Assembly (NCBI GenBank): GCA_963765495.1
Contig: CAVXWP010000007.1
Coordinates: forward strand, 96,001 to 160,000
Length of the DNA: 64,000 bases
Reading direction: 5' to 3'
Source of the DNA: Blastocatellia bacterium
GTDB taxonomy: Bacteria > Acidobacteriota > Blastocatellia > UBA7656
The notes beneath the pieces are model-generated. The model saw nothing but the letters and a program-made list of their open reading frames with translations. It did not search any database and was not told where the DNA came from. The translations under genes were made by a program, and so were the position numbers. Of the stretch, positions 975 through 50,576 are shown piece by piece (position 1 is the stretch's first letter; each line of letters begins with the position of its first letter).

Positions 975-1067
975 GGTGGTCGGGGGTCGGGGGTCAGTCA
1001 TCCGGCGATACCTGGTATTGAGATTCCCAATTACCAGTAATCACCGACCACTGACCACCGACCACTG
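975..1067. repeat. Inverted heptamer-array element (GGGGTCG/GTGGTCR units)
   Basis: ggtggtcgggggtcgggggtcagt ... tcaccgaccactgaccaccgaccactg, with an inner ctggta/taccag stem; between recQ and rho. Confidence 0.8.
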
Positions 1068-1071
1068 TTTA

Positions 1072-3372
1072 TCAATGGGGCAGCTCGAGCATAACCTCCT
1101 GGCGGCTCATCATAACCTCGCGACCGAAATCCGTGAGGTCCACTGTAGGATAAGCGCCGTGCTCAACCTTGATGCAGTCTGCGCCGATCAGCGCCTTGAT
1201 AAACGAGGTGATCTCGTCCTGTGTCATGTTTTTGAGCAGACCGTAAGTAGACAGCTTGTTCAAATCGTTTTGAAGCACCTGTTTCGATGTAGAGCCGCGC
1301 AGCACCGCCGCGACCGTCCCTTTCCCAAACCGATTCTTCAACCGGGCGACGCAACTGAGTATCTTCTTGACTACGACAAGCTCGGCTTCGTTCAGATGCC
1401 GCGCTCCTTCCTGCCTGTCGTCCGAGCCCAGAGCCGTTTTTGCTGATCCTGTTTTTGCTGATCCCGGTTTAACTCCCTCGGCTTTGGCTGAACGCTCGGC
1501 CCGCCTGCGGAGATCGGCCCGTAGCTCTGCTCCCGTGGGCGCGTGATCAATTATGAAATTATCGAGCGCGGTCGCATCACCTATCTTCCGCGACTCTGAC
1601 GACCGGCCAAGGGTCAGAGTGCCCGCGGGCAGTCTGGTCCCCGTGCTCGTCTCTGATGCATCCAGATAGGAACCGGCATCGGGCGCGCAGCCGGAGCAGG
1701 TGCCGCAGTTTCCAAGATGCTTACGGTCTCCGAAGTAATTCAGGATGAAACGGCGCAGGCAGCCCTTATGGTAACAGAAATCAATCATCCTGCGTAGCTT
1801 CCACTGTTCGGCGGCGGCGCGCGCGGCCAGTTCCTTCTTATCTATCCTGAGCGCGCGGGCCGGTTGCTCATCGAGCAGCCGTATTCCGCGTCCCTGATAG
1901 ACGTTGCGGTAAGTGATAAGCCCTCGCGCCGAAAGACGCGAGAGCGCGCCTCGCGTCTGGGCCTCGCTCAGCCCCAGCACAGCCGAGATGGTATTGAGAT
2001 CAAGCTCGGTCGCTTCGCGTTCGTTGATGTTGCGATTAAAGATCAGGTCGCGAATGACGCCGCCTTCGTTCGTATCATCGGGCACGGCTTCGAGCGCCTT
2101 ATCGACGGGCACGGCCATCCAGGCGAGAAGCGTGGCGTCAGACGAGCGCCCGCGCTCTATGTGACCCGACTTCTCTAAAACCACGAGCGCCGAATATATC
2201 GACATGTCGTTTTTGATGCCGACTCGCTGGGCTATCTCGCGCGCTGACAACTCGATGCTTTGAGTGCCGAGCGAGGCGATTTCCTGATAGATGCGGCCTA
2301 TCAGTTCGGGCGGCGGGTGGCTGCCTTCTATGAAAAACTGCTGGGTTCGCGTGTCGGCATAATTGAAGAGCAGCGCGCAATCGGCTGGCAGCCCGTCGCG
2401 TCCTGCGCGGCCTACCTCCTGATAGTAAGCCTCTATCGAACCGGGCAGGTGGAAATGGACCACGAAACGTATGTCCGATTTATCAATCCCCATCCCGAAG
2501 GCATTCGTCGCCACTATGGCCTGCGACTGCCCGGTCATGAATCGATCCTGCGCGGCAGTGCGCTCGGCCTCTTCCATGCCGGCGTGGTATGCCTCTATGC
2601 TGAGGTCCATCATCTTGAGCTTCGCCGATATTTGCTCGACGCTCTTGCGCGTGGCGGCATAGATGATGCCCGAGCCCGAAGAGGCGGTGATGATGTTTTT
2701 GAGCGTAGCGAGTTTCTCTTTTTCGGTCGAGGTGTGGACGACTCTGAGCGCCAGATTGGGACGGTCGAAACCGGCTACGAAGACGCGCGGGTCGGTCAGG
2801 CCGAGTTGCTCGCTGATGTCGGCGCGGACCTGCTGGGTCGCGGTTGCGGTGAGCGCGATCACCTGCGGGCGGCCCAGTTGCTCTACGGCCTCTTTGAGCT
2901 TGAGGTAATCGGGTCTGAAATCGTGTCCCCAGTGCGATATGCAATGGGCTTCGTCAACGGCGAAAAGCTTTACCTTGACCTCCGAAATCGTCTGGGTGAA
3001 GGCCTCGCTTCGGAAACGTTCGGGCGCGATATAGATCAGTTTATACAGCCCCCGGCGTATCTCGCTCAGCCGCCGGTTTGCCTCCGCGTAGGTGAGAGAA
3101 CTGTTTATAAAAGTGGTGGGAATTCTTCGCGATGCGAGTTGATCGACCTGATCCTTCATGAGCGCGATGAGCGGAGAGACCACAAGCGTCACGCCCTCAA
3201 TCATCATCGCGGGCAACTGGAAACAGAGCGATTTGCCGCCGCCCGTAGGCATGACGACTACCGCATCCTGACCACCGAGAACGGCCTCGATGACCTCGGC
3301 TTGCCCTTCGCGAAAATCTGTAAATCCGAAGTGTTCGAGTAGAGCCTCGCGTGCTCTGCCAACTTCGCTCAA
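1072..3372 (-). CDS. recQ: ATP-dependent DNA helicase RecQ family
   Basis: MPTGGGKS Walker A, DEAHCISHWGHDFRP, GRAGRDG, CxRR...CGTCSGC Zn site, C-terminal RQC winged helix; no HRDC domain. Confidence 0.95.
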   Translation of the reverse strand: MSEVGRAREALLEHFGFTDFREGQAEVIEAVLGGQDAVVVMPTGGGKSLCFQLPAMMIEGVTLVVSPLIALMKDQVDQLASRRIPTTFINSSLTYAEANRRLSEIRRGLYKLIYIAPERFRSEAFTQTISEVKVKLFAVDEAHCISHWGHDFRPDYLKLKEAVEQLGRPQVIALTATATQQVRADISEQLGLTDPRVFVAGFDRPNLALRVVHTSTEKEKLATLKNIITASSGSGIIYAATRKSVEQISAKLKMMDLSIEAYHAGMEEAERTAAQDRFMTGQSQAIVATNAFGMGIDKSDIRFVVHFHLPGSIEAYYQEVGRAGRDGLPADCALLFNYADTRTQQFFIEGSHPPPELIGRIYQEIASLGTQSIELSAREIAQRVGIKNDMSIYSALVVLEKSGHIERGRSSDATLLAWMAVPVDKALEAVPDDTNEGGVIRDLIFNRNINEREATELDLNTISAVLGLSEAQTRGALSRLSARGLITYRNVYQGRGIRLLDEQPARALRIDKKELAARAAAEQWKLRRMIDFCYHKGCLRRFILNYFGDRKHLGNCGTCSGCAPDAGSYLDASETSTGTRLPAGTLTLGRSSESRKIGDATALDNFIIDHAPTGAELRADLRRRAERSAKAEGVKPGSAKTGSAKTALGSDDRQEGARHLNEAELVVVKKILSCVARLKNRFGKGTVAAVLRGSTSKQVLQNDLNKLSTYGLLKNMTQDEITSFIKALIGADCIKVEHGAYPTVDLTDFGREVMMSRQEVMLELPH

Positions 3373-3854
3373 GTGGAAACCCTCACATCTGTTCTAATTC
3401 AAGCGGGGTAAACTGTTCAGCAGTCTCTTTGCTAAGCTAGAAAGATAGCATACGGGCGGCTCGTTTCTCAAATTCAGCGGAAGTACACGACGCTGCGCCC
3501 ACTTCCATTCGATCTGGTTAGAACGGTACTTTAACAATCACGACCGTGTGATCCTTGCGGCTCGGCTCTATACGAACCCTGCCACCGAGCGATACGGCTC
3601 GCTCCGAGATCGAACGCGGGGTAAATCGCGCGGACGTGGCCGGGGCTGCGCCGTCTGCCTATCATATCATTGCGAAAATGGAGCGGAACGGTGACAAACG
3701 AAATTGCCTCAAACAGATTCGCGCGAAGACGCAAAGCCGCAAAGTACGCAAAGGTTCTTCATCGGGCGATCAGTAATTTCCTGCGATCTCGGCAGGTCAA
3801 TCTGAGAATTATTTAGCCCCGGGGCCTGACCCTATCAGGCATAGTAAAAGAATG

Positions 3855-4262
3855 CTACTGCTTTGCAATCAAGAGTGTAGCAATGTAATAACCTTTACTT
3901 GTAATGGTTTCGGCTTTTGGTCGAGGGTCCAGCTTGACCAGTGTAATCCTGTATTGCTTGTAGTCAACCTCTTTTGGTTCCGTAGTCGTGTTTAGTTGAG
4001 CAGAAACCGTCTCGCTATCGCTTTTCGTGGCTTTGACAGTTATCTTTGCGTTGCCGGCCCAGATGCAATCGACGCCTTCGGGACAACGCGAATCTTCATC
4101 TACAGAATTGAATCCGATCACAAGCCCCTCGCCCTTAATCAAGGCATTCTGGCCTATTTTCAGTTCGAACTCCTTGTTCAGAGAGATCGTCTTCACATCG
4201 CAATTCTGCTGCGCGAACCCTATAAGGAGCGCAAATAGCATCAGGGTTATAGTCATCGCCAT
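3855..4262 (-). CDS. Secreted hypothetical protein (DSRCP..V.CIWAG motif family)
   Basis: Signal-like N-terminus after GGAAGG RBS; EDSRCPEGVDCIWAGNA motif. Confidence 0.75.
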   Translation of the reverse strand: MAMTITLMLFALLIGFAQQNCDVKTISLNKEFELKIGQNALIKGEGLVIGFNSVDEDSRCPEGVDCIWAGNAKITVKATKSDSETVSAQLNTTTEPKEVDYKQYRITLVKLDPRPKAETITSKGYYIATLLIAKQ

Positions 4263-4461
4263 GGTTGCCGCCTTCCGGGCTGTCCGGGCTGATAGAATCA
4301 ATCGCCTGTTGAGCAGACGCTTCTCTAAAAGAATAGGCTCACCCGGGCGCAGGGGCAAGCGAGGCGGCGGAAAAAAGGGCGAAGCCCATACAGGGTTCGC
4401 CCGCAATAGACATATCCCGATTCCTGACAATTCGCGTGATTGGTAACCGGCTTCCCCGGCA

Positions 4462-5241
4462 TCAGCGCTTCAAGCGGAGGGCCAGAAACAGCGCGGGGCG
4501 GAAAATTTTCCACCAGTCAACAAGCGCCCGCATCTTTGTATAAGCCATCCCGTCGGCCTTCGGCGGATACTGTATCGTCACAGGCACTTCGATGACCTTA
4601 TATCCAAGCTTTAATGTCTTGAACAACAGATACGGCTCCAATTCATAACGATCCAACCAGTCCTGCCATAAATCTATTCGCCGGTCTTTAAACAGCGAGA
4701 CTCTCATGGCGCGAAATCCGCTTGATGCGTCGGTGACTTTTCGACCTGCCAGAAGCGAAAAAAGCGTGGTGTAAGCCCGGGTTCCCAGTCGTCGGCGAAA
4801 AGGCATGCGCAGGAACTCGCCGCCCTCTTTGTAACGCGAACCCTGAGCCAGATCGGCTTCGCCTCTGATTACCGGGTCCACGAGTCGCGGTATCTGTTCG
4901 GGCGGGGTCTTGCCGCCTCCCGATACCACTACCACGATTTCATAGCCGTGCTCTATCGCGTAATCGATTCCGCTGCGTATCGCCGCGCCCACTCCTCGAT
5001 TGCCGTGACTGCGGATGACAACGGCCCCGGCCGATTCGGCCAGATCAGCGGTGTCGTCGGTCGAGCCGTCATCGACGACGACGGTCGTTTCAACAGCCTC
5101 GGCGGGCACTGCGGCCACGACTCGTTTTATGCGCTCGCCTTCGTTCCAGGCAGGCGCTACGCACAGCACGCGGGGATGCTCTAATACGTGCGCTTTGACC
5201 GCGTTCACGCGGATGTCTGGTTCATGTGCTCGTTTAGCCAT
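4462..5241 (-). CDS. Glycosyltransferase family 2 (DPM1-like)
   Basis: VAPAWNE, VVDDGSTD, GSRY, DASSGFRA; start chosen at MAKRAHE. Confidence 0.9.
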   Translation of the reverse strand: MAKRAHEPDIRVNAVKAHVLEHPRVLCVAPAWNEGERIKRVVAAVPAEAVETTVVVDDGSTDDTADLAESAGAVVIRSHGNRGVGAAIRSGIDYAIEHGYEIVVVVSGGGKTPPEQIPRLVDPVIRGEADLAQGSRYKEGGEFLRMPFRRRLGTRAYTTLFSLLAGRKVTDASSGFRAMRVSLFKDRRIDLWQDWLDRYELEPYLLFKTLKLGYKVIEVPVTIQYPPKADGMAYTKMRALVDWWKIFRPALFLALRLKR

Positions 5242-6182
5242 TCGTATGTTCGCCTCAAACCCTGCTCTACGGTTATGCTGGGAACCCATCGCAGTTCGCG
5301 TCTTATTTTTTCGATGTTCACAACGCGACGCCGGATGTTATCAATATCACGGCGGTCAACATAAACGGGTTGCACCCCGGCTCCGGCGATTTCGATTATC
5401 ATTCGCGCCAGTTGATTTATAGTCGTTTCGCGCCCGGTTCCCACATTATAAACCTGGCCGTCGGCCTTGGCCGCAAAGGCCGCAAGCAGGGTAGCTTCTA
5501 CCACATCGTCGATGTATGTGAAATCGCGGGTCTGCTCGCCGTCTCCGTGTATGCGGGGAGCGGTGCCCGCCATCGCGGATTCAAAGAATTTCGACACAAC
5601 TCCGCAATAAGGATTATCGGGTCGCTGCCGCACGCCAAAGACGTTGGAGTACCTGACGACGGCGGTCGAAAGACCGTAGCTTTCATAAAAAGCCTTACAA
5701 TAATTTTCGCCCGCAAATTTCGAGACCGCGTAAGGGCTGAGCATATTCGTGGCGTCGTCTTCATTGATTGGCAGGTATCGGGGATTGCCGTAAACCGAGG
5801 CCGATGAGGAATAGACTACGCGGCGGATGCCAAGCTCGCGCGCGGCGAGCAAAACATTCAGAGTGCCGCCGATGTTGACCTCGTAATCTTCGCGAGGGTT
5901 GCGAGTAGAGACTATGATATTGCGCGCGGCCTCGTGAATTATTATGTCAGCGTCCTTGACTGTCCGGCGAACAAGTTCGAAATCCGTAACCGAGCCGCGA
6001 ATGATCTGAAGCGACGGATGAGATGAAGGCAGATTGTCTTCCATGCCGGTGTAAAAATCGTCCAGCACTATTACCGAGGCTCCATCCGCAAGCAGACGGC
6101 CTACGATGTTTGAGCCTACGAAACCGGCCCCTCCCGTAACGACTATGCGCTGGCCTTCTACATTATCAGAGTATTTCATCAC
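5205..6182 (-). CDS. NAD-dependent nucleotide-sugar epimerase/dehydratase
   Basis: TGGAGFVG, SSSASVYG, YAVSK, GDGEQTRDF. Confidence 0.93.
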   Translation of the reverse strand: MMKYSDNVEGQRIVVTGGAGFVGSNIVGRLLADGASVIVLDDFYTGMEDNLPSSHPSLQIIRGSVTDFELVRRTVKDADIIIHEAARNIIVSTRNPREDYEVNIGGTLNVLLAARELGIRRVVYSSSASVYGNPRYLPINEDDATNMLSPYAVSKFAGENYCKAFYESYGLSTAVVRYSNVFGVRQRPDNPYCGVVSKFFESAMAGTAPRIHGDGEQTRDFTYIDDVVEATLLAAFAAKADGQVYNVGTGRETTINQLARMIIEIAGAGVQPVYVDRRDIDNIRRRVVNIEKIRRELRWVPSITVEQGLRRTYEWLNEHMNQTSA

Positions 6183-6274
6183 TAATCCTTTAATATCTTA
6201 GAAAAACAGCTTCGTATAGGGGCTCGAAAAAAACTGACTCGGAAGGATACCTTATTTTGCTTCTACATTCCAAT

Positions 6275-6410
6275 GGTGGGGGCCAGGGGCCGGGGGTCGG
6301 GGGCCGGTTATTGATGAATGTAATCGTTAACCCGGAAAACCAATCACGGCTAACATAGGTCTGCGAAAAGATGAAAACCGGCCCCCGACCCCCGGCCCCT
6401 GGCCCCCGCC
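6275..6410. repeat. Inverted heptamer-array element (GGGGCCR units), 35-bp arms
   Basis: 6275-6309 and 6376-6410 are reverse complements except for one position. Confidence 0.9.
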
Positions 6411-6412
6411 GA

Positions 6413-6421
6413 TGCTATAAT
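6413..6421 (+). promoter_or_regulatory. Extended -10 promoter (TGCTATAAT) for probable leaderless hemW mRNA
   Basis: TGcTATAAT followed by 6 nt and then the GTG start; no SD. Confidence 0.6.
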
Positions 6422-6427
6422 CTCAGA

Positions 6428-7609
6428 GTGAGAAAACAGGCAGGCATCTATGTTCATATCCCTTTTTGTGAGCGGAAGTGCACCTATTGCAATTTCAACA
6501 CCACTGATTTTTTTGAAGGGCTGGCTGCGCGCTACGTCGAGGCCGTCTCGCGCGAAATCGCTTACTGGGGCCGCCGCCTTGCCGAGCGTGACGCGTGCGG
6601 ACGCGTTATCATTGATACGATTTTTTTCGGAGGCGGCACGCCTTCCATAATCGAGGCCGGTCAACTGGGCACACTCATCCAGGCTTGCCGCGAAGCATTC
6701 GAAGTCACGCCTGACGCCGAAATCACCATTGAAATAAACCCGGGCACTTTTTCGCCCGAAAAGTTTGCCCGATGGCGCAAGGAGGGCATCAATCGCGCAA
6801 GCATAGGCGTTCAGTCTTTTATCGATCGTGAGCTTGTCGCGCTCAGCCGCACCCACACGAGCCGGGACGCCCGTCGAACGATTCTCAAATTGCGCGAGGC
6901 GGGTTTCGAGAACATCAGCCTCGATCTGATAGCCGGGCTTCCCGATCAAACTCTGACCGACTGGGAATTCAATCTGAGTGAGGCGCTCAAACTCGACCCC
7001 GAACACCTGTCGCTTTATCTGCTCGAAGTAAAGGAAGGGACTCAATTATTCGCGCAGATAAAGCGAGGACAGCGCCCGCGCCCTGATGACGACCTGGCGG
7101 CGGAGATGTATCGTATGATCTCGGCTGCGACGCGAGCTTCGGGGTACGAGCATTATGAAATCTCGAATTTTGCCGTCATTGCCGGTAATCGAAAATCATC
7201 GCTTGCTTCATACCGGTCTAAACATAATATGAAGTACTGGACCGGAGCGCCGTATTATGGCGTTGGATGCGGCGCGCATTCTTACGATGCGCGCTCGCGC
7301 CGGGTGAACGTATTGAAGACCGAAACCTATATCGACCGCATAGCCGCGCACAATCACGCGATTGGCGAAGAGCATCATCTGTCGAAAGAAGACCGGGCGG
7401 CAGAGGCGCTGTTTATGGGATTGCGCCTGACCGAGGGGATAAGCCTGATCGGGTTTCTCAGCGAGTACGGTATAAACATACGGGAGCGCTACGCGGATGA
7501 GTTATTGCGACTGGAAGAGGCTGGATTGATAGAATTCAGCGACGACCATATGAGATTAACCGGGCGGGGGCTGTTGTTGTCGAACGAGGTTTTTCAGGTG
7601 TTTGTCTGA
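6428..7609 (+). CDS. hemW: Radical SAM heme chaperone HemW
   Basis: IYVHIPFCERKCTYCNF, FFGGGTPS, YEISNF, HNMKYW; start moved to GTG 6428 because the upstream extension is a translated repeat. Confidence 0.93.
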   Translation: MRKQAGIYVHIPFCERKCTYCNFNTTDFFEGLAARYVEAVSREIAYWGRRLAERDACGRVIIDTIFFGGGTPSIIEAGQLGTLIQACREAFEVTPDAEITIEINPGTFSPEKFARWRKEGINRASIGVQSFIDRELVALSRTHTSRDARRTILKLREAGFENISLDLIAGLPDQTLTDWEFNLSEALKLDPEHLSLYLLEVKEGTQLFAQIKRGQRPRPDDDLAAEMYRMISAATRASGYEHYEISNFAVIAGNRKSSLASYRSKHNMKYWTGAPYYGVGCGAHSYDARSRRVNVLKTETYIDRIAAHNHAIGEEHHLSKEDRAAEALFMGLRLTEGISLIGFLSEYGINIRERYADELLRLEEAGLIEFSDDHMRLTGRGLLLSNEVFQVFV

Positions 7610-7647
7610 ATAATATTTTTAACATCCATTCAGAAAGGGAGAAATTT

Positions 7648-7715
7648 GCCACAGAGACACAAAGGCACAGAGATTTTTTTGTAATCTTTTCTCTGTGTCT
7701 TTGTGCCTCTGTGGC
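7648..7715. repeat. Inverted 8-mer-array element (CACAGAGR units), copy 1
   Basis: gccacagagacacaaaggcacagag ... ctctgtgtctttgtgcctctgtggc. Confidence 0.85.
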
Positions 7716-7803
7716 TGTTGCGAACTCTTCCAATCTTTGGGTTAGATAGACAGGCGAAAGAGAATCCTGTATATCCTTAACTCTCTTTTTTATTGGAGAA
7801 GCG

Positions 7804-8856
7804 ATGAACTTCATAGATTTGCGTAGCGACACCGTGACAAAGCCTACCGACGAGATGCGCGAGGCGATGGCTCGCGCCGAAGTCGGCGATGATGTTTATC
7901 TGGAAGATCCGACGGTGAATCGGCTGCAAGATATGGCCGCCGCAATGCTCGGCAAAGAGGCCGCGCTTTTCGTCCCCTCAGGTACGATGGGCAATCAGAT
8001 ATGCGTACGCCTGCACACCGAGCCCGGCCAGGAAGTTATCACCGAAGAACGCAGTCACATATTCAATTATGAGATGGCCGCGATGTCTGCCTTGAGCGGG
8101 ACTCTTGCACGCCCGGTTCGCGGGGCTGACGGGTTGCTTGATTGGCCCTCTATCGAAGCGTCAATTCGCCCGACGAGCGCATATTACATTGCGCAGACGG
8201 GTCTGGTTACGCTCGAAAACACTCACAACATGGCGGGCGGTTCCATTATGCCGCTTGAGCGCGTGGAAGAGATATGCGAGCGGGCGCACGAAGCGGGTCT
8301 CCCGGTGCATCTTGACGGCGCGCGGATATTCAACGCAAGCGCAAGCCTGGGGCGCGATGTCTCGGAGCTTGTTCGTCCCGTCGATTCCGTGATGTTTTGT
8401 TTGTCGAAAGGGCTCGGCGCGCCCGTAGGCTCTCTCATCGCGGGTTCACGCTCGTTCATCACACGCGCCATCGTAGTGCGGAAGATGTTTGGCGGAGGGA
8501 TGCGTCAGGCGGGCGTGCTTGCTGCCGCTGGCATTGTCGCGCTTGAACAGATGACCACCCGCCTCGCCGAAGACCACGCCAACGCGCAACTTCTCGCTCG
8601 CGGCGCGGCCGAAATTCCCGGCGTAACGATTGATCCCGAAAAGGCGCAGACCAACATAGTGATATTCGACATCGGCGGTACGAGCATAACGACTGCGGAA
8701 TTATCGGAAAGGCTCAAACAGCAAGGCATCCTTGCAAACGGGATCAGCCCGCGAGAGATGCGAATGGTCACTCACAAGGACGTGAGCCGTCAAGATTGCC
8801 AGGTGGCGCTCGATGTTATGAAGGAGATAATGAGTGATGCGCACAGTGATGCGTGA
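7804..8856 (+). CDS. ltaE: Low-specificity L-threonine aldolase
   Basis: [35 protein letters not shown]. Confidence 0.95.
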
Positions 8857-8941
8857 TCCGTGATTCGTGATTTAGCAGACTTGCAAGTTGTTATTGACAG
8901 GCAAGCTTCCTGAAAATCACGGATCACGCATCACGCATCAC
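8846..8941. repeat. TGATGCG-family palindromic element, copy 1 (contains ltaE stop)
   Basis: gtgatgcgtgatccgtgattcgtgatt ... aatcacggatcacgcatcacgcatcac; core cagacttgcaagt. Confidence 0.88.
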
Positions 8942-8950
8942 TCTACACTT

Positions 8951-9619
8951 ATGAACAGACTTGTAATCGCTATTGACGGACCATCGGGCGCGGGCAAAAG
9001 CACCGTAGGCAAGGCGCTGGCTCGGCGGTTCGGGTACCTCTATATTGATTCGGGAGCTATCTATCGCGCGGTAGGCCGCAAGGCGCTTGACCGGGGCGTC
9101 TCTCTTGATGACGAGGCGGCGCTCGCTCGTCTTGCGCGCGAATCGGATATAAGACTCGAAGGCGACCCCGACCACCTGCGTGTCTTTCTGGACGGGCGCG
9201 ATGTCACAGCAGAAATCCGCCTGCCGGAGGCAAGCCGCGCTGCTTCCGTGGTTGCGACCCTCGCCGAAGTGCGCGAGGCCGTGGTCGAAAAGCTCCGAGA
9301 GATGAGCCGCGCAGGCGGCGTAGTGATGGACGGGCGCGATATCGGCACAAAGGTTTTTCCCCACGCGCAGGTGAAGGTCTTCCTCGATGCTTCGTTAGAG
9401 GTGCGTGCGCGCAGGCGATGGGATGAAGAGACGGCTCGCGGGCGCGCGGTCGAGGTCCGGCAGGTGAGCGCCGAGCTTGAAGACCGCGACCGCCGAGACC
9501 GTGAGCGTCAGGCGACCCCACTTGCAAAGGCCGAGGATGCTATCTTTTTAGATACTTCCGACCTCTCTTTGGACCGCGTAATTGACCGCGTGCTTGAAAT
9601 TGTCCAATCGCGCAGCTAA
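8951..9619 (+). CDS. cmk: Cytidylate kinase
   Basis: IAIDGPSGAGKST, DSGAIYR, DGRDIGT. Confidence 0.95.
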   Translation: MNRLVIAIDGPSGAGKSTVGKALARRFGYLYIDSGAIYRAVGRKALDRGVSLDDEAALARLARESDIRLEGDPDHLRVFLDGRDVTAEIRLPEASRAASVVATLAEVREAVVEKLREMSRAGGVVMDGRDIGTKVFPHAQVKVFLDASLEVRARRRWDEETARGRAVEVRQVSAELEDRDRRDRERQATPLAKAEDAIFLDTSDLSLDRVIDRVLEIVQSRS

Positions 9620-10442: not shown

Positions 10443-10443
10443 A

Positions 10444-10566: not shown

Positions 10567-10579
10567 ATCGAGGACGATT

Positions 10580-16199: not shown

Positions 16200-16202
16200 A
16201 AT

Positions 16203-19345
<3,143 letters not shown>

Positions 19346-42084: not shown

Positions 42085-42160
<76 letters not shown>

Positions 42161-43254: not shown

Positions 43255-43389
43255 ATTCGTCTTTAACTGATTGAAAGGTTTATTGCTCAGGCATAAAATA
43301 GCCTCGCCGCGCAGAAGGATCAGCCGCTGATTCGAACAATCAATTTCTCGGCCCTCTTTTTGCGCACTTTTGAGCACAGGGAATCAACG

Positions 43390-45111
43390 ATGAAAGTGGA
43401 CCCGGTCAAACTCGAAATATTCAAATCGCTCTACTCTTCGGTAGCCGAGGAGATGGGCGTATCTTTGCGGCGGTCGGCCTTCTCTCCAAACATAAAAGAG
43501 CGCCGCGATTATTCCTGCGCCGTCTTTAACAGCGAAGGCGTTCTTATAGCTCAGGGCGATCATATGCCTGTTCATCTCGGCTCGATGCCGATGTCTGTCC
43601 GCGCAGCCCTCGATCTGTTACAACTCGCGCCCGGTGACATAGCGGTTCTCAACGATCCTTACGCGGGCGGAACCCATCTGCCCGATGTGACTATGGTGGC
43701 CGCCGTATTCGGGGGCCAGGGGCCGGGAGCCAGGGCAGGGGCCGGGGGCCGGGGGCCGGGGGCCGGGGCACAAAGGTTAGTAGTCACTGACAGACACGCA
43801 ACAGCCAGGTTGAAGAGGTCGGAATGGAACACCCATAAGGGTACAAAACAAACGCAAGTCAAATACTGGCCCCCGGCCCCTGGCCCCCGGCCCCTCTTCT
43901 ACGTTGCCAACCGCGCCCACCATGCCGACATTGGAGGTGCGACGCCGGGTTCTATGGGAAGGGCCGAAGAGATTTATCAGGAAGGGCTGAGGATACCACC
44001 CGTTCGATTGATGAGGGGCGGGCGCATCAACGATGATGTGATGCGATTGATTGCGGCAAACGTCCGTCTGCCCGAAGAGCGCGAGGGAGATTTGACGGCA
44101 CAACTCGGGGCGATCAATACGGGCGCGGCTCGGCTCGTTGAAATAGTCGAGCGATACGGGTTCAGGGAAGCCGATCTTTATGCCTCGCATTTGATCAATT
44201 ATACCGCTCGGATGATGCGGAGCGTCATCGCCAGCCTGCCCGACGGTCTTTACAAAGCCGAAGACTTTCTTGATGACGACGGGTTTTCAGACGAGCCTGT
44301 CCGTATAGCCGTGAGCATCGAGATCAAAGGCGAACAGGCAATCGTAGATTTCACAGGCAGCGCGCCGCAGGTTCGCGGCCCTGTCAATGCTGTCGAAGCA
44401 ATCACGGTCTCGGCAGTCTATTACGTATTCCGGTGCCTTATACCTATGGACGTTCCCGCAAGCCAGGGGATACTCGAACCGATTAGAGTAATCGCGCCCG
44501 TTGCGACCGTGGTCAATGCCCGTCCGCCCGCTGCGGTCGCGGGCGGAAATGTCGAAACCTCTCAGCGAATAGTCGATGTGCTGCTGCTCGCGCTCTCAAA
44601 AGCCTCGGCTGGCGTGCCTGCCGCAAGCCAGGGCACTATGAACAATCTGACCATAGGCGGCGTAGACGCGCGCACAAATCGGCAGTTCGCCTACTATGAA
44701 ACGATAGCGGGCGGAATGGGTGCCCGGCCCTCAAGCGACGGGCTTGATGCGATCCATACTCACATGACTAATTCATTGAATACGCCCGCCGAGGCGATGG
44801 AATACGCCTATCCCATGCGAGTGCGGCGATATGAGATACGACGCGGATCGGGCGGTGGTGGCCGGTTTCGCGGCGGCGATGGGATTGTGCGAGAGATAGA
44901 ACTGTTAACACGCGCGCAGGTTACTATACTGGCTGACCGGCGCAAGACTCGACCCTACGGGCTTGCCGGCGGAGAGAAGGGGGCGCCGGGCCGCACGCTT
45001 CTGATAAGCGATAAGGGCGAACGGTTGCTTGCGGGAAAAGATTCGGTTCACGCAAGCGCGGGCGACCGTATCCGCGTAGAGACGCCCGGCGGTGGCGGGT
45101 ACGGAAAGTGA
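43390..45111 (+). CDS. Hydantoinase B/oxoprolinase family protein with in-frame repeat insertion
   Basis: SPNIKERRDYSC, NDPYAGGTHLPD, RAHHADIGG, QGTMNN, TPGGGGYG. Confidence 0.93.
   Translation: MKVDPVKLEIFKSLYSSVAEEMGVSLRRSAFSPNIKERRDYSCAVFNSEGVLIAQGDHMPVHLGSMPMSVRAALDLLQLAPGDIAVLNDPYAGGTHLPDVTMVAAVFGGQGPGARAGAGGRGPGAGAQRLVVTDRHATARLKRSEWNTHKGTKQTQVKYWPPAPGPRPLFYVANRAHHADIGGATPGSMGRAEEIYQEGLRIPPVRLMRGGRINDDVMRLIAANVRLPEEREGDLTAQLGAINTGAARLVEIVERYGFREADLYASHLINYTARMMRSVIASLPDGLYKAEDFLDDDGFSDEPVRIAVSIEIKGEQAIVDFTGSAPQVRGPVNAVEAITVSAVYYVFRCLIPMDVPASQGILEPIRVIAPVATVVNARPPAAVAGGNVETSQRIVDVLLLALSKASAGVPAASQGTMNNLTIGGVDARTNRQFAYYETIAGGMGARPSSDGLDAIHTHMTNSLNTPAEAMEYAYPMRVRRYEIRRGSGGGGRFRGGDGIVREIELLTRAQVTILADRRKTRPYGLAGGEKGAPGRTLLISDKGERLLAGKDSVHASAGDRIRVETPGGGGYGK
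43711..43895. repeat. GGGGCCR inverted heptamer element inside CDS
   Basis: gggggccaggggccgggagccagggcaggggccgggggccgggggccggggg ... tggcccccggcccctggcccccggcccct. Confidence 0.88.
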
Positions 45112-45208
45112 TACGTGATTCGATTTCTGATGCGTGATGCGTGAGTTCAGGCAGGCCGCAGGTTCAAGACTACTTGCAAGTCTGGTAAATCACGTATCAC
45201 GCATCACG
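45109..45208. repeat. TGATGCG-family palindromic element, copy 3 (reverse orientation)
   Basis: Starts at the hydantoinase stop TGA; core acttgcaagtctg is the reverse complement of the copy 1 core. Confidence 0.85.
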
Positions 45209-47392
45209 CTATACTTCTTCAAGGATCAGGTTTGAAGAATCCTGTTTGCTTCGAACTTCTTCAATCAGGTTTTGTACGATTTCAGTCAGCTTCTGGATGG
45301 AAGTCGGATTGAGAAACACTTTCTTGATACCGAGTTCGCGTGCAGTCTCTTTGTCTTGAGTGCGGATGTAGCCTGTGGCCATAACTATAGGCACATCCCG
45401 GCGAATTTTCTGGATAAGACGAATAAGCTCAGGCCCTTCAAACTCCGGCGGACATATCGGTTATGACTATGTCATAGCGGTCGGGTTCGGCGCGAAATGC
45501 CATCAGTGCCTCCTGAGGGCGGTCGAATCCGGCCACCTCATAGCCCTGTCGCTCAAGCATTCGCTTGGCCAGAAAGACGAGCGGTTCCTCATCATCCACA
45601 AACATGATGCATCCGCGAGAGTGGCGCGTTTTGCACTTTGACTCCGGTTTCGAATGCTCTACCCCGGCTTCGACCGTCGGGAAATAGAGATTGAAGAGAG
45701 TCCCCTTTCCCGGTTCGCTGTAAACGGTCACGGCCCCGTCATGGCTTTTCATAATGCCATGCACCTGCGAGAGCCCCAGACCTGTCCCTTCGCCCGAGGG
45801 TTTGGTAGTGAAAAACGGCTCAAAGATGTGTCGTTGTGTCTGCGTGTCCATGCCGCAGCCGGTGTCGCTTACCGACAGACGCAGATAACGCCTTGGGCGC
45901 ACGCCCATCGCCGAGGCTTCTTCGTCGCCGAGCATAACCTCAGACAAATCGATCTCTATCTGCCCGCCGTGTTCTTTCATCGCATGAGCGGCGTTCGTCC
46001 CGAGGTTCATCAGCACCTGATGAATCTGAGTGGGATCGGCCGACACAAGCCGGGGTTCAATGTCCTCATGGCTTGAGGTAATCTTGATCTTTGCCGGAAG
46101 AACCGCCCGCAGGAATCCGAGCGCCTCTTCGATTATCGGCTCCAGCCTGATGATCTTGCGCATCGTCTTTTGATTGCGGCTGATCGTCAAAATCTGCTGC
46201 ACTATGTCGGTAGCCCTATCAACGGCCTTCTCGATCTCGGCGAGGCTTACCTGCGCGGTATGTTCGATCGGTATGTCGAGCCGCGCAAGTTTTACATTTC
46301 CGGCAAGCGCCGCAAGGATATTGTTGAAGTCGTGCGCTATGCCTCCCGCCAGCCGCCCGATGGCTTCCATCTTCTGCGATTGACGCAGGTGGTCGGCCAG
46401 TCTCCTTTGCTCGGTCGTGTCGCGGAAGGAGGCCAGCAGCACCGGCTTTCTGTTCCTTTCCACCTGCACAACGTGCATATCCGCACTGCGGGTCTCGCCG
46501 TCTCGCCATATCTGGATTTCGCAGAATTGCCCTTCCTGTACGGAGAACCCCAGCAGTTCACCTATAAAATCTTCGCGGCTCTTGCCGAACATATTGTGCA
46601 TTCCTTTATTGTCAATCGTGTACTCACGAATCTGCTTGTCGTGCCAGGTGCCGCGCATCTTAAGCACGGTGAGCCCCCGGCGCATCTCGCCCTGCAACTC
46701 CACGTATCGCAGAAGGATGATCGTGTCGGTGATCGTCGAGATGTGCGTCTCGGTGATCGATTCGCCTCCCAGAGGCATCGAGGTCGTGTTTGTGAACAAT
46801 CCGGTTATTTCCTGATGCTTGATAAAGCTTGTGATGCCGATGACGAATTCGCGGAATGACTTGATTGTCGAAACGCGCTCAAAGGCCGACATGCTGTCTA
46901 CGGCTACGCGGCTCGGGTTAAAATCCTTGATGTCTCGTTTCATTTGCAACAGGTGGTCTTCAAGCCCCATGACCTCCGGGTATCGGCAGATGATTCGCAG
47001 CAACCCGTCTTTTTCAGCCTTTTCCAGATCGACGCCCCACGAAGTCGCGTTGCGTGTGAGTTGCTCGCGGCTCTCTTCGGCCCCGAACAAAATGGCGCGC
47101 TCGCCCGCGTTTATGGCCGCCTTTATGTACTCGGTGACCATAAGCGTCTTGCCCGTTCCGGTAGCACCGCTGACGAGGATGATCGAGTCGCGGTACATGC
47201 CGTGTATCCGTAAAGGCGTTCGGCGGCAGGATTCCAACTGGTGAGCGTTCCATCGAGTGTCTTTGTCAGAATCGCATCATCGGAAGATTCGATGATGGTT
47301 CTGTAAAGCCGTTCTCTTGTGGCCTGTTGCTCTTCGCGGCTTAGAGTTTTTTCGTTAATAACCTGCATAAGATTCAACCATTCATAAAGCAT
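45209..47392 (-). pseudogene. kaiC: Collapsed kai locus: PAS fragment / KaiC CII domain fused in frame to PAS-HisKA-HATPase-REC, frameshifted
   Basis: GATGTGKT, EES, HISTITDTIILLRYVE, KMRGTWHDK (46596-47201), then QSQKMEAIGRLAGGIAHDFNN; frame breaks near 47201 and 45449. Confidence 0.85.
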
Positions 47393-49128: not shown

Positions 49129-49419
49129 ATGATCGAACTCACTGAAAGAGACGGGACCGTTACGTTCGCGGTTCGAGTCCAGCCTCGGGCCTCGCGGACC
49201 GAATCGGCGGGCGAACAGTCGGGCGCGCTGAAGCTCAGAGTAACCGCGCCGCCCGTGGACGGCAAAGCCAATGAAGAGTGCCGCAGGTTTCTGGCCAGGT
49301 TGATAGGCGTTCCCGCCCGGTCTGTAGAGATCATTTCAGGCGATTCATCACGAAATAAAATCATCCGCATCCACAACTCAAGCGCCGCCCGTGTCCGCGA
49401 TGCGCTGGCTGATGCGTGA
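49129..49419 (+). CDS. DUF167 (YggU) family protein
   Basis: VRVQPRAS, APPVDGKAN, G..SRNK. Confidence 0.92.
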   Translation: MIELTERDGTVTFAVRVQPRASRTESAGEQSGALKLRVTAPPVDGKANEECRRFLARLIGVPARSVEIISGDSSRNKIIRIHNSSAARVRDALADA

Positions 49420-49499
49420 TGCGTGATCCGTGACGCAAGCAGGCTTGCAAGTCCGCTTAAACCTGCGGCCTGTCTGAAAGTCACGCATCACGCATCACA
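49410..49499. repeat. TGATGCG-family palindromic element, copy 4 (contains DUF167 stop)
   Basis: tgatgcgtgatgcgtgatccgtgac-gcaagcaggcttgcaagtccgcttaaacctgcggcctgtctgaaa-gtcacgcatcacgcatcac. Confidence 0.88.
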
Positions 49500-49508
49500 T
49501 GAACGGGT

Positions 49509-50330
49509 CTAATTCTTGATCGCATAAGTCACGTTGACCGTCACTCCGTCTTTACCGCTTACGGCGTTGACGACGGCCGTGCGCTTTTTGTTTGCGTCAT
49601 CGGCGACAAGGGTTCGCGACGGCTCTTCGCTTTGCTGCGTGAGGTTTGTGCGAATCTTCAGCCCGGCTTCTTCCAGCGCCCTTTGATAAAAGGCCGCGAC
49701 ATCGTCTATGGAATCATTTGTAGTAAAACTGAAGGACCCGCTTCTCCCGTCTTTGCCATCGGCCGAATAGTTGCCTCGAATAGTCGCTCCCGGATACGAA
49801 GGCAACCATTCGGGCAGATTTGCCGGGGCTCCGCTGCCCAATTTGACCGTGCCTTCTTCGGATTTCACCTCTACGCCGCCCGAATCGCCCTCGCCCTTTG
49901 CCTCTATTGTGACGGCTTCTTTGCCTTCTTCTTTAAACTCGATCTTTCCCCGGCGCGCATCTTCCAGGTTTACGGTTACGGTCTTGCCTGTCTTCTTATC
50001 CCTGACCGTTATGAGTCCCTTCTCTTCATCAACCGAGACGAGTTCGAGATCGGGGTTTGTGGCCGTTATAAATTTCGCCATCGCAAGCGCGGGTTGTTTC
50101 TCCATCAACTCCGGGTCAAGCCCCGCTTCCTTAGCCATTCGCGAGGCTTTTTGATAAGCAAAGTAACCTGCAATGGCGAACCCGATCACCGATATGATTA
50201 TTAGCGAGCCGCAGCCTAGCAGTATGTATAGCCATGTCTTCTTCTTTTTCGGCGGCTCGCCCTGTGGATACTGCGAATACTGCGGCGGCGGCCCGGGCTG
50301 ATATTGCTGTTGAGTATCGTAATTAGACAT
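49509..50330 (-). CDS. Single-pass membrane hypothetical protein
   Basis: Pro/Gln N-terminus, KKKK-TM, LPEWLPSYPGA, DDVAAFY; AGGAG RBS. Confidence 0.8.
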   Translation of the reverse strand: MSNYDTQQQYQPGPPPQYSQYPQGEPPKKKKTWLYILLGCGSLIIISVIGFAIAGYFAYQKASRMAKEAGLDPELMEKQPALAMAKFITATNPDLELVSVDEEKGLITVRDKKTGKTVTVNLEDARRGKIEFKEEGKEAVTIEAKGEGDSGGVEVKSEEGTVKLGSGAPANLPEWLPSYPGATIRGNYSADGKDGRSGSFSFTTNDSIDDVAAFYQRALEEAGLKIRTNLTQQSEEPSRTLVADDANKKRTAVVNAVSGKDGVTVNVTYAIKN

Positions 50331-50508
50331 TCACTCTCCTTAAATCATTTCGGCACACATCCCCGGAAAAAATCTCCGGGCTGCATGCGCTGTTCTTCGC
50401 ACGCGCTTCGTCTGAGTAAGGGGTTCTTCAGAAAGCATTGCAGAGCAAACATACCATCTTCCGAAGTGGAGGCCAACTCCGGGTCGTATCGGTTTGAGTT
50501 CAACAGTT

Positions 50509-50576
50509 GCCACAGAAGCACAGAGACACAGAGATTCTTTTATTTTCTTCTCTCTGTGCCTCTGTGCCTCTGTGGC
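50509..50576. repeat. Inverted 8-mer-array element (CACAGAGR units), copy 2
   Basis: gccacagaagcacagagacacagag ... ctctgtgcctctgtgcctctgtggc; flanks match copy 1 in reverse orientation. Confidence 0.85.

Follow-up and report, generated by a model that had tools for sequence, protein, structure and literature searches.

Gene-less hairpins with tandem 7–9-nt repeat arms in a soil acidobacterium, and the small genes enclosed by arms of the same kinds

Hairpin elements in the window

Fifteen palindromic elements lie between positions 975 and 50583 of the window, the 64,000-nt stretch of Blastocatellia DNA analysed here, and an inverted pair of tandem arrays is present at all 15 of the positions at which the original prediction had placed them. 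Four belong to the GTGATNC family: 8845–8942 (40-nt loop of a semi-conserved, family-specific type, overlapping the stop codon of ORF 7804–8856), 23991–24091 (51-nt loop, between divergent ORFs), 45109–45209 (at the stop of ORF 43360–45111, between convergent ORFs) and 49410–49498 (45-nt loop, between convergent ORFs). Three are of the GGGGCCG family. That at 6275–6410 lies between divergent ORFs and has 35-nt arms, 97% complementary, around a 66-nt loop; that at 10444–10566, starting 1 nt past the stop of ORF 9789–10442, has a left arm that is degenerate, with about 2 units; and that at 43710–43895, with a left array of about 8.7 units and a loop of about 103 nt, lies between divergent genes and is covered by the long ORF 43360–45111, whose true start is probably after the element. 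The CACAGAGR 8-mer family is represented at 7648–7715 and, between divergent ORFs, at 50502–50583, both with T-rich 16-nt loops.

The remaining six elements each have a different unit. The element at 975–1065, between ORFs that are both on the minus strand, has about 46 nt between its arrays; its units are a mixture of GGGGTCG and GTGGTCG, and the pairing is imperfect. The GGATTTT element at 11799–11858 starts 1 nt past the stop of ORF 10580–11797 and has a loop of a single nucleotide, whereas the AGGCAGT element at 16203–16547 has a 289-nt loop with no recognisable gene, within which a non-periodic, REP-type double hairpin is nested (16340–16443). The CACGAAAYA 9-mer element at 20621–20692 fills the spacer of two convergent ORFs, and the GAGTTTT/GAGTTAT element at 26195–26275 (15-nt loop) is likewise between convergent ORFs. 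The element at 35753–35878, of the CGCGGATnn 9-mer family, has 57-nt arms that are 75% complementary.

A uniform search (TRF arrays of period 6–10, paired if the partner unit is the reverse complement with at most 1 mismatch) finds 13 of the 15 elements, the two not found being 10444–10566 and 35753–35878. The array pairs that it delimits are 978–1065, 6278–6408, 7650–7713, 8846–8941, 11799–11858, 16203–16547, 20624–20687, 23991–24091, 26195–26275, 43710–43894, 45128–45209, 49410–49498 and 50511–50574. DNA folding of eight elements gives z-scores of -6.6 to -9.9, with none of 200 shuffles folding as well. Contig C7 contains 85 inverted array pairs and its first-order Markov simulation contains none, and the whole 7.3-Mb genome has at least 543 inverted pairs of tandem 7–9-nt arrays against 34 direct pairs. 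Arms have 2 to 17 units. The units had been described as unrelated in sequence; rather, they form families, each with its own type and length of loop.

Genes enclosed by inverted arrays

All five TIGR02436 and TIGR04256 genes of this genome are exactly enclosed by inverted arrays, each with a different unit (GGGGCC, GAGTTTT, AGGGATG, GGATTTT and the 9-mer CGCGGATnn) that recurs in a gene-less family of the genome. The TIGR02436 (PF05635) genes encode an Avd-like four-helix-bundle protein, for which we know of no catalytic activity, and whose closest solved homologue is XCC0516 (PDB 2GSC, E 2.6e-26). The TIGR04256 genes encode a nuclease-fold protein (GxxExxY/PDDEXK_3) whose nuclease motif keeps its D, E and K residues unchanged in all nine aligned proteins. 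Several window elements can be matched to such cassettes. The unit family of 6275–6410 also brackets the four-helix-bundle cassette at C1:724983–725426, that of 26195–26275 brackets the cassette at C1:1070893–1071326, and the left arm of 11799–11858 resembles its counterpart in the four-helix-bundle cassette at C1:951863–952300. The 35753–35878 element has the ends GAAATAGGCC...GGTCTATTCC and the GxxExxY cassette at C8:160855–161386 the ends GAAATAGGCC...GGCCTATTTC, 1–2 mismatches apart. In relatives, PDDEXK_3/GxxExxY genes are bracketed by the CACAGAGR unit, and one PDDEXK_3 gene (genome G002, locus L189) by arms of the CACGAAAYA type.

The association extends well beyond this genome, and the 'filled versions' with four-helix-bundle and GxxExxY genes that the original prediction suggested are borne out for most such genes in relatives and other phyla. 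Periodic inverted arms flank 63 of the 72 full-length TIGR02436 genes in 15 related genomes, and inverted arms flank 16 of the 28 PDDEXK_3 genes of related genomes and 46 of 77 in a set from many phyla. In both PDDEXK_3 sets the score of these arms exceeds that of every mismatched-flank control. Cargo genes mostly share the direction of the ORF upstream, at 25 of the 28 loci for TIGR02436 and at 18 of 26 for PDDEXK_3.

Gene-less copies outnumber the cassettes by about 100 to 1 (at least 505 against 5). With the sole exception of GTGATNC, each of the window's unit classes also occurs around a cargo gene, either in this genome or in a relative. GTGATNC is the largest family (231 of the 505 copies), and no cargo-bearing copy of it was found in this genome (G000), among the 72 TIGR02436 genes of the relatives, or among further genes of G003 and G007. 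Cargo copies of AGGCAGT are similarly lacking from G000 and G020, so a population can be maintained without its cognate gene. None of the gene-less loops is matched by the interior of any of the four heptamer cassettes, and in the 9-mer family just one gene-less copy retains about 24 nt of the cassette trailer; with so little shared interior, derivation of the gene-less copies by internal deletion is only one possibility, and it is equally possible that the gene entered a hairpin that already existed. One related genome, G008, has no arrays within the 300 kb sampled despite having two PDDEXK_3 genes.

Repeat period and unit follow the enclosed protein

The repeat period depends on the family of the enclosed protein. 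Among the 63 TIGR02436 genes with arms in relatives it is 7 in 50, 8 in 12 and 9 in one, with 11 of the 12 period-8 cases falling in one protein cluster. The PDDEXK_3 arms have periods of 8, 9 or 10 (32 cases) or 6 (one case), never 7, and 13 are non-periodic by the measure used. The unit also co-varies with the protein: when each protein is compared with its nearest neighbour from another genome, the units are 2.29 apart, as against 3.66 for shuffled labels, and none of 1000 shuffles reaches 2.29. Units are within 1 mismatch for about a third of protein pairs with at least 70% identity but for only 1–2% of pairs below 50%, and in one protein lineage the unit drifts stepwise from GGATTTT through GGATTTC and GGATTGC to GGAATGC. 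The proposal that periodicity and not sequence is recognised thus does not hold up well; a unit that drifts with its protein lineage is probably recognised by sequence, beyond mere periodicity. Taken together, the two dependences point to a sequence-specific pairing of protein and arm, judging from sequence comparison, although co-variation among kin may reflect co-inheritance alone.

The hairpins, whether selfish or host-made, could be the older component and the two small gene families passengers that home into their loops; GxxExxY would then cut an empty hairpin like a homing endonuclease, and the gene-less copies would be empty targets and not derivatives. The lack of matches between cassette interiors and gene-less loops fits this order of events, as do the large families without any cargo copy, the 11799–11858 copy that consists of cassette arms and one nucleotide, the invariant nuclease triad, and the demonstrable insertion of the 9-mer element and of a REP-type hairpin in hairpin loops. 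We nonetheless consider it unlikely. Cargo lineage and unit co-diverge across genera with the period fixed for each protein clade, which would require each gene lineage to have kept to a single hairpin family; filled copies are oddly rare for efficient homing; and the four-helix-bundle protein has no nuclease motif.

Gene context and turnover

By crude longest-ORF calls, 312 of the 505 short-loop copies are between co-directional, 109 between convergent and 56 between divergent ORFs. For the co-directional copies the median distance from the stop codon to the start of the element is about 1 nt, and 277 of the 312 are within 20 nt of the stop. Stops in all three frames are present in the first arm of 344 of the 505 copies but in the second arm of only four. 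Of 27 copies called within ORFs, 17 are of the GGGGCCG type, and the copies deep within long ORFs are of this stop-free type. The prediction that the elements are not only terminators stands, since no copy matches a terminator pattern (hairpin plus T-run) above shuffle expectation, and 56 copies lie between divergent ORFs.

Comparisons with relatives, all of which are of different genera, show that the elements come and go. In other genera, five junctions of the window and one of a cassette have instead a hairpin with a different unit, a non-periodic hairpin, or a spacer of only 14–43 nt; one relative, for example, has only about 14 nt at the 10444–10566 junction. Four other families have the 9-mer element nested within their loops. 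Counts of GTGATNC trimers are 195 in G000, 300 in G003, 16 in G001, one in G009 and zero in the 17 other genomes, and AGGCAGT trimers number 449 in G004, 198 in G020, 141 in G000, 32 in G009 and 23 in G007; families thus amplify genus by genus. The elements are therefore neither confined to gene 3′ ends nor fixed at orthologous sites, and they do enclose cargo, in keeping with the dispersed, mobile-like behaviour that had been proposed. Target duplications at the elements do not exceed the control.

The close fit to stop codons could indicate that the hairpins are host RNA elements, selected as operon punctuation for mRNA 3′-end protection, RNase III processing or translational insulation, with the cassette genes merely exploiting them as do the ORFs of 23S rRNA intervening sequences. 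The stability of the hairpins, the three-frame stops of the first arm, and the naming of a cargo family after those intervening sequences are all compatible with such a role; stop-codon adjacency is expected in any case, because empty spacers are only about 14 nt. However, G.T mispairs, which are G.U-compatible in RNA, are no commoner than A.C mispairs on the sense strand of the 312 co-directional copies (138 versus 167), leaving the 'RNA-structure system' of the original prediction unsupported. The 56 copies between divergent ORFs, orthologous junctions with another family or with no hairpin, families with hundreds of matches in one genus that are not found in the next, the related genome with no arrays in 300 kb, the lack of a terminator pattern, and the failure to find an Rfam family for the hairpins also argue against it, and we regard this role as improbable. 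An origin in place, in which replication slippage extends a seed palindrome without copying between sites, might be suggested by an empty junction at which a palindrome of one unit (AGTGGCCACT) remains, in the place of the full GGTCAGT hairpin of a relative, and by the variable unit number, but is already hard to hold and very improbable given nesting, genus-specific bursts, families with common non-periodic termini such as GAAATAGGCC, and at least 55 AGGGATG copies at unrelated sites, in both orientations, whose loops of about 70 nt are homologous and would, on this view, have to be convergent.

A proposed foldback cassette model

The explanation we favour, with some reserve, is that the elements are the gene-less population of small foldback cassettes, whose arms would be tandem recognition sites for the cargo protein. 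A full cassette is about 0.45–0.55 kb and consists, in order, of a G/T-rich array of 3–6 units, a leader of about 40 nt with a ribosome-binding site, the small gene, a short trailer and the inverse array. The two kinds of cargo gene are unrelated, four-helix-bundle genes being paired with 7-nt units (8-nt in one clade) and GxxExxY/PDDEXK_3 genes with 8–10-nt units. A gene-less copy comprises the arms and a loop, between 1 and about 120 nt long, whose type depends on the family. By analogy with REPIN-RAYT systems, each family may be a protein and repeat pair, in which the cargo protein is predicted to bind the arms and, either itself or through a host factor that it recruits, to copy or maintain them. 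Copying would occur at the DNA level, with copies inserting, without duplication of the target, into other hairpin loops or into the few bases that separate a stop codon from the ribosome-binding site that follows, and with families amplifying and decaying lineage by lineage. The cargo would be expressed via read-through from the upstream host gene, and the three-frame stops of the first arm may serve to end incoming translation. The bracketing of cargo genes by such arms ties 7-to-10-base intergenic bacterial repeats that have lacked an explanation to two protein families of unknown function.

Comparison with known systems

REP/REPIN elements and their RAYT genes (REPtrons) are similar in that a single-copy gene is flanked invertedly by a palindrome that is also scattered gene-less in intergenic regions, in that several gene and repeat pairs can occur per genome, and in that targets are not duplicated. 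They differ in that the cargo here is a four-helix-bundle or PD-(D/E)XK-fold protein and not an HUH Y1 transposase, and in that the arms are tandem arrays of a 7–10-nt unit and not one imperfect palindrome. We note that this genome also contains a classical REPtron, with a Y1_Tnp gene at C17:144209–144484 and hairpins GTAGGGGCA...TGCCCGGAT on its flanks; neither of the two Y1 genes of the genome has tandem-array arms nearby. MITEs are likewise short, numerous, intergenic and gene-less, with terminal inverted repeats and ends common to a rarer gene-bearing form, but the elements here have no target-site duplication and no known transposase, and what the heptamer families have in their loops is not the residue of a deletion in the gene-bearing form.

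The four-helix-bundle protein is a distant sequence relative of Avd, the accessory protein of diversity-generating retroelements, and the two solved relatives each have five chains per entry. Its matches to the bAvd profile PF22296 (38.4 bits, cut-off 40) and to NF033474 (30.1 bits, cut-off 80) are, however, below the family cut-offs, and the cassettes contain no reverse transcriptase, the reverse-transcriptase genes of this genome being located away from them. ORF-bearing 23S rRNA intervening sequences, the source of the Pfam name 23S_rRNA_IVP, carry the same protein family inside a long stem of inverted flanks as a passenger in a host transcript, whereas the elements here are between protein genes and show no sign of RNA-level constraint in the wobble test.

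The STRR heptamers of cyanobacteria are among the known analogues. Published paired inverted arrays of heptamers or octamers include the GGGAATC arrays of Xanthomonas (Rehm et al. 2015, PMC4692102) and those of Geobacter metallireducens, described as 'global regulator binding sites' (Aklujkar et al. 2009, PMC2700814). Both have about four tandem units per strand, convergent and 21–135 nt apart, and are intergenic, near the upstream ORF and not conserved in position between species (PMC4692102, PMC2700814); Geobacter also has several unit classes within one genome (PMC2700814). In the parts of these accounts considered here, they are interpreted as G-quadruplex formers or regulator sites, with no link to enclosed genes (PMC4692102, PMC2700814). 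Such a link is nevertheless visible in the table of Rehm et al., where GGGAATC repeat no. 15 is placed 6 nt away from XCC0517 and overlapping the annotated start codon region of XCC0516 (PMC4692102, supplementary file 2), the gene whose product was noted above as the cassette protein's nearest homologue of known structure. Paired heptamer arrays as such are thus already on record; the dependence of the repeat period on the cargo and the stepwise drift of the unit with its protein lineage are new.

Paired inverted arrays in the window and across the genome

The 15 gene-less elements of the window share a simple organization, in which tandem units of 7–9 nt (the first arm) are followed by a loop and then by the inverse array (the second arm). 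All of those listed in the original prediction are real, with TRF reporting arrays of period 7–9 at each position and inspection of all 15 sequences in agreement. The arms are 19–57 nt long and 75–100% complementary in an inverted-repeat scan of the window, and DNA folding of eight elements gave z-scores between −6.6 and −9.9. A uniform pipeline, in which TRF arrays of period 6–10 are paired when the partner unit is the reverse complement with no more than one mismatch and lies no more than 1500 nt away, recovers 13 of the 15; those missed are a degenerate GGGGCCG element (10444–10566) and a 9-mer element (35753–35878).

The genome that carries the window (G000; 7.30 Mb, 17 contigs, 54% G+C) contains 4540 TRF arrays, including 1641 of period 7, and these yield 543 inverted pairs versus 34 direct pairs. 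The inverted pairs are predominantly of period 7 (507 pairs, with 22 of period 8 and 14 of period 9), their median loop is 45 nt, and the modal number of units per array is four. On contig C7 there are 85 real pairs versus none in a Markov simulation of the same contig; the pairing of the arrays is confirmed, and is far beyond chance. A DNA contig set (X1) compared with window positions 900–20800 gives low and patchy cover, and its one joint (16226/16513) has just 24 nt on one side and is not trusted.

Other features of the window include two tRNA genes on the reverse strand at 41690–41762 and 42088–42160 (Rfam RF00005, 61 and 69.5 bits), and a non-palindromic tandem array at 40141–40196 (unit GCCTTAACGATGA, 13 nt, 4.3 copies, 95% matches) that adjoins the start of the ORF at 40196–41428.

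Unit families, loops and gene context

The units are not arbitrary: they fall into families, each with its own loop. Among the 505 copies in G000 with a loop shorter than 150 nt, the largest family is GTGATNC (231 copies, and four of the 15 window elements), followed by AGGGATG (66), AGGCAGT (53), GGGGCCG (49), GAGTTTT (38), GGATTTT/AGATTTT (22), the 8-mer CACAGAGR (17) and the heptamer GAGATTT (9), with other units in the remaining 20. The AGGGATG loop is about 70 nt and homologous among copies in either orientation, that of GTGATNC is about 43 nt and semi-conserved, and that of CACAGAGR is 16 nt and T-rich; the GGGGCCG loops are unrelated to one another. The presence of the same loop at unrelated sites shows that there has been copying between sites, and not local slippage alone. 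The G+T-rich arm comes first in 476 of the 505 copies, a rule that holds on both strands because the element is a palindrome. A heptamer containing a stop codon places a stop in all three frames within 21 nt, and such three-frame stops are present in the first arm of 344 copies and in the second arm of four.

Gene context was taken from crude calls (greedy longest ORFs, n = 5689), and places 312 copies in co-directional spacers (of 3799), 109 in convergent spacers (of 938) and 56 in divergent spacers (of 935), with 27 overlapping an ORF interior and one at a contig edge. The distance from the stop codon to the first arm has a median of about 1 nt, and is within 20 nt in 277 of the 312 co-directional copies; since the whole spacer is about 14 nt in relatives without the element, this tight adjacency needs no special targeting. 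The stop-free GGGGCCG type accounts for 17 of the 27 in-ORF calls, including all of those deep inside long ORFs, as would be expected if a unit could persist within a gene only when it lacks a stop. A terminator pattern (a G+C-rich hairpin followed by a T run) occurs at 24 sites versus 21.9 ± 5.0 in shuffles, and none of these is an element; together with the 56 copies between divergent ORFs this agrees with the earlier contention that the elements are not only terminators. No element matches an Rfam family, and PADLOC returned nothing useful.

Gene-bearing cassettes

Similar arrays had been predicted to flank genes for four-helix-bundle and GxxExxY proteins, and G000 contains four profile matches to TIGR02436 and one to TIGR04256, all five of which lie exactly between inverted arrays. 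Each of these cassettes has a different unit (CAGGGGC, TTTTGAG, AGGGATG, GATTTTG, and the 9-mer GCCGCGGAT) and all have the same order, with an arm, a leader of about 40 nt containing a Shine-Dalgarno-like motif, the ORF, and a stop codon 10–70 nt before the other arm. The four-helix-bundle cargo belongs to PF05635 (3.9e-36) and has an additional sub-threshold match to bAvd; the GxxExxY cargo belongs to PF13366, PDDEXK_3 (2.5e-39). The ends of the window 9-mer element, GAAATAGGCC...GGTCTATTCC, are those of the GxxExxY cassette save for one or two mismatches, and the window GGATTTT element corresponds to cassette arms with a 1-nt loop between them. All of the window copies and all five cassettes are located between or beside protein-coding ORFs.

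Remnants of cassette interiors were sought in the gene-less loops, with no match for the four heptamer cassettes and one for the 9-mer cassette; approximate matching with 23 nt of the 9-mer cassette trailer gave one clear copy. Cassette interiors are, apart from this 9-mer case, without homologues in the gene-less loops, which speaks against derivation of the latter by deletion; a gene could equally have arrived in a pre-existing hairpin.

Arm period and unit sequence in related genomes

The comparison set comprises the 20 nearest species genomes (G001–G020), all from other genera and with 65–81% DNA identity in genes. TIGR02436 genes number 0–21 per genome and are present in 15 of the 21 genomes, and 63 of the 72 full-length genes examined have periodic inverted arms by the criteria applied, with periods of 7 (50 genes), 8 (12) and 9 (one). 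Eleven of the 12 period-8 cases form a single protein cluster (by average linkage) that extends across nine genomes. PF13366 genes number 0–7 per genome and are present in 16 of the 21; at 16 of the 28 loci in relatives the inverted arms score above 14, the highest value reached by mismatched flanks as a control. Their units (CACAGAGR, GCAAAGGC-like, CACGAAGAA, CAGGATTTT and CGCGGATnn) correspond to the 8-mer and 9-mer classes found in the window. For PDDEXK_3 genes in other phyla, 46 of 77 usable loci score above every control, and these have periods of 10 (13 loci), 8 (13), 9 (6) and 6 (one), with 13 non-periodic by the measure used and none of period 7. Since the periods differ by cargo family and clade, each period is characteristic of the protein between the arms.

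The unit sequence also follows the protein. First, units are no more than one mismatch apart in about one third of protein pairs at 70% identity or more, versus 1–2% of pairs below 50%. Secondly, the mean unit distance to the nearest protein neighbor in another genome is 2.29 mismatches, versus 3.66 for shuffled labels (none of 1000 shuffles reaches the observed value), and nearest neighbors agree in period in 92% of cases versus 66% for shuffles. Thirdly, one lineage can be followed from GGATTTT (G000 and G012) through GGATTTC (G019) and GGATTGC (G002 and G003) to GGAATGC (G011), as protein identity drops from 75% to about 60%. Because kin share labels, what this co-variation demonstrates is joint inheritance, with all the units of both arms changing in concert; by itself it does not establish recognition. 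It had been proposed that periodicity, not sequence, is recognized; the co-variation of unit and protein sequences argues against periodicity alone mattering.

Across the genomes sampled, array density is only loosely related to gene number. G008 has no arrays in 300 kb and no TIGR02436 gene. In G014, 300 kb of contig C1 contain 19 palindromic arrays, nearly all of them 8-mers (AAAGGCGC/AGAGGCGC), and the genome has three PDDEXK_3 genes and no TIGR02436 gene, which matches the period rule. Other array counts are 7 in G006, 16 in G009, 15 in G019 and 18–33 in G000.

No cargo copy with GTGATNC units is present in G000, among the 72 TIGR02436 genes, or among further TIGR02436 genes of G003 and G007, whose units are of other kinds. 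Three long-loop GTGATNC pairs with the right arm order were considered as cargo copies and rejected, because the genes within them are ordinary host genes that have separate and complete hairpins on their flanks. For AGGCAGT there is a cargo copy in G009 and another in G004, the latter judged from one arm at a contig end, and none in G000 or G020.

Turnover, patchiness and nesting

Five window junctions were compared with 11 syntenic loci. The junction occupied by GTGATNC in G000 has CAGTTGC in G007, a non-periodic hairpin in G003 and about 16 nt in G005. The GGGGCCG junction has GTGCTGA in G006, CTTGTCC in G003, GTTCTGA/GTGCTGA in G004, a complex array in G011 and 14 nt in G001. At the GGATTTT junction the unit in G012 is a related one and its loop is about 140 nt, while G007 has GGTCAGT and G011 has 14 nt. 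At two further compared junctions the relatives carry an extra gene.

Several of these loci have features of their own. The interval 7609–7804 is 194 nt with a CACAGAGR hairpin in G000, and five syntenic relatives have an extra 1.27–2.3 kb, apparently a gene; at 6182–6413, two relatives have about 410–455 nt with an ORF-like stretch in place of the GGGGCCG hairpin. In G011 the 14-nt spacer orthologous to 11797–11928 (locus L017) keeps a 10-nt perfect palindrome, AGTGGCCACT, consisting of one unit and its inverse. This palindrome is either a seed or a scar left when a hairpin was deleted; G007 has a full GGTCAGT hairpin at the junction.

The junction of the GGGGCC cassette (C1:725 kb) is similarly variable: G001 and G006 have hairpins of TCAGNNN and GAGATTT units, respectively, the hairpin of G003 is non-periodic, and G005 has 43 nt. 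The eight relatives compared there hold other families or nothing, and thus no filled and empty pair of one family is seen at this site.

The families are patchily distributed. GTGATNC trimers number 300 in G003, 195 in G000, 16 in G001 and one in G009, with none in the other 17 genomes, and AGGCAGT trimers number 449 in G004, 198 in G020, 141 in G000, 32 in G009 and 23 in G007; reversed-pattern controls gave zero, save for one match in G010. The 9-mer element is found nested in the loops of GGGGCCG, GTGATNC, CCACTGA and AGGCAGT hairpins. A composite sub-family has AGGCAGT arms and a loop of about 115 nt that always contains one CGCGGAT 9-mer arm together with additional shared sequence (e.g. 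G000 C1:585936–586096, 735076–735267 and 795519–795697), and here a nested pair seems to have been copied further as a single entity.

Target duplication, pairing and expression

The flanking direct repeats of the 505 copies are no longer than those of mismatched-flank controls, also at offsets of ±4 nt, and there is thus no target duplication. Arm positions are paired on the sense strand at 93.3% in the 312 co-directional copies, with 138 G·T and 167 A·C mispairs (p = 0.11). A selected RNA hairpin should favor G·U, and as there is no such excess this wobble test gives no RNA-level signature. The original interpretation of a non-autonomous mobile or RNA-structure system survives in part: the mobile-like and non-autonomous character stands, as do the gene-bearing versions, and the RNA signature and recognition of periodicity only are set aside.

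Cargo gene and upstream ORF have the same orientation at 25 of 28 TIGR02436 loci and 18 of 26 PDDEXK_3 loci, which fits read-through expression. Eight RVT_1 matches are present in G000, at C2:555493–558553 and at the starts of C8 and C9, several of them at contig ends and at near-identical places on C8 and C9; they resemble group II intron-type elements present in several copies, at which the assembly breaks.

Interpretation

We consider it somewhat probable that the elements are the gene-less partners of one-gene foldback cassettes, and that the arms of the latter consist of tandem words recognized by the cargo protein. Several findings count against this reading: GTGATNC, the largest family, has no cargo copy among the genes surveyed; AGGCAGT has none in G000 or G020; the interiors of the heptamer cassettes are not recovered in gene-less loops; and array density tracks gene number only loosely. 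A broader proposal, which we put forward tentatively and think rather less probable than the first, is that there are two parallel and so far undescribed kinds of prokaryotic foldback element, mobile or self-maintaining, in which a non-transposase protein of about 120 residues reads a tandem array of its own 7–10-nt word at both ends and drives copying. In one kind this protein would be a four-helix-bundle oligomer resembling Avd, and in the other a minimal PD-(D/E)XK nuclease. Under its action the cassette and its gene-less versions would be copied into hairpin loops and the spacers between genes, with the target left unduplicated.

Were this so, it would account for the surplus of 7-nt repeats in the spacers of bacterial genomes, such as the cyanobacterial STRR, the Xanthomonas GGGAATC repeats and the Geobacter 'regulator sites', and would provide a function for PF05635 and PF13366, which are large families of unknown function in many phyla. 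A single genome here presents side by side about 540 gene-less hairpins (nine families or more), the gene-bearing forms that go with them, a rule linking period to protein family, and stepwise co-drift of word and protein. A vague puzzle about repeats becomes a set of bench questions, namely whether each protein binds its own word, and whether it moves the hairpin or protects it. The hairpins also matter for gene calling and assembly, as they close frames in three phases, make false N-terminal extensions, and sit within genes if stop-free.

Comparison with known systems

The REPIN/RAYT systems (REPtrons) have a gene flanked in inverted orientation by a repeat that is also dispersed without the gene, and the cassettes share this arrangement (five of five in G000, and 63 of 72 and 16 of 28 in relatives). 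However, the flanked gene does not encode the HUH Y1 (IS200-like) transposase, so that the cassettes work like REPIN/RAYT systems and yet are not members. G000 has two Y1_Tnp matches, both without tandem arrays nearby. One of the Y1_Tnp (RAYT/IS200-like) genes, C17:144209–144484, forms a classical REPtron, with inverted hairpins GTAGGGGCA...TGCCCGGAT on its flanks (C17:143990–144640); the repeat is non-periodic, and its hairpin core has 22 matches in G000, counting both strands. A double copy of this REP-type hairpin (16340–16443) is nested in the loop of the window AGGCAGT element.

The elements resemble MITEs in their terminal inverted repeats, small size and lack of a gene, but they have neither the target-site duplication nor a transposase-encoding parent, the only cargo genes being those of PF05635/TIGR02436 and PF13366/TIGR04256. 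The cassettes, although not the gene-less window elements, share with 23S rRNA intervening sequences a PF05635-family ORF within an inverted-flank stem, but lie among protein-coding ORFs and not in a 23S rRNA helix. Diversity-generating retroelements also differ, with a score to the Avd model NF033474 of 30.1 bits versus a cut-off of 80 and a single gene per cassette. Intrinsic terminators differ in their G+C-rich hairpin and T run at gene 3′ ends, and CRISPR arrays are dismissed, as there are no spacers and no cas context.

Tandem heptamers between cyanobacterial genes have been described without a mechanism since about 1990, and small dispersed repeats of Nostoc, reportedly described by Elhai and colleagues in 2008, are also relevant. 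Our search of the available literature found no paper linking TIGR02436, PF05635, GxxExxY or TIGR04256 to flanking repeat arrays. Paired arrays have been published for Xanthomonas campestris, with 186 GGGAATC repeats, 70 of them in convergent pairs; these mostly have four units, are 89% intergenic and close to the upstream ORF, and are discussed as quadruplex formers (PMC4692102, Rehm et al. 2015), with pair spacings of 21–135 nt among the first 74 table rows of supplementary file 2. The elements described here have the same convergent arrays of about four units on both strands, and the same intergenic position near an upstream ORF. They are unlike the Xanthomonas repeats in that most families lack quadruplex-capable G-tracts, which discounts G-quadruplex elements as an explanation: a run of three G residues is present only in GGGGCCG and AGGGATG units, and absent from those of GTGATNC, GAGTTTT, GGATTTT, AGGCAGT and CACAGAGR. 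In Geobacter metallireducens, paired sites that contain four octanucleotide or five heptanucleotide repeats were reported as putative global-regulator sites (PMC2700814, Aklujkar et al. 2009); regulator operators were rejected for the present elements, which occur in hundreds of copies and are genus-specific. Enclosed genes are not linked to the arrays in the available portions of either paper, and no mechanism is given there. The closest solved homologue of the cassette protein is XCC0516 (PDB 2GSC), and in the Xanthomonas table GGGAATC repeat no. 15 is six bases from XCC0517 and lies over the annotated start of XCC0516 (PMC4692102). Paired inverted arrays themselves are thus already in print, and the period rule, the tests of co-variation, wobble and target duplication, and the XCC0516 link are new here.
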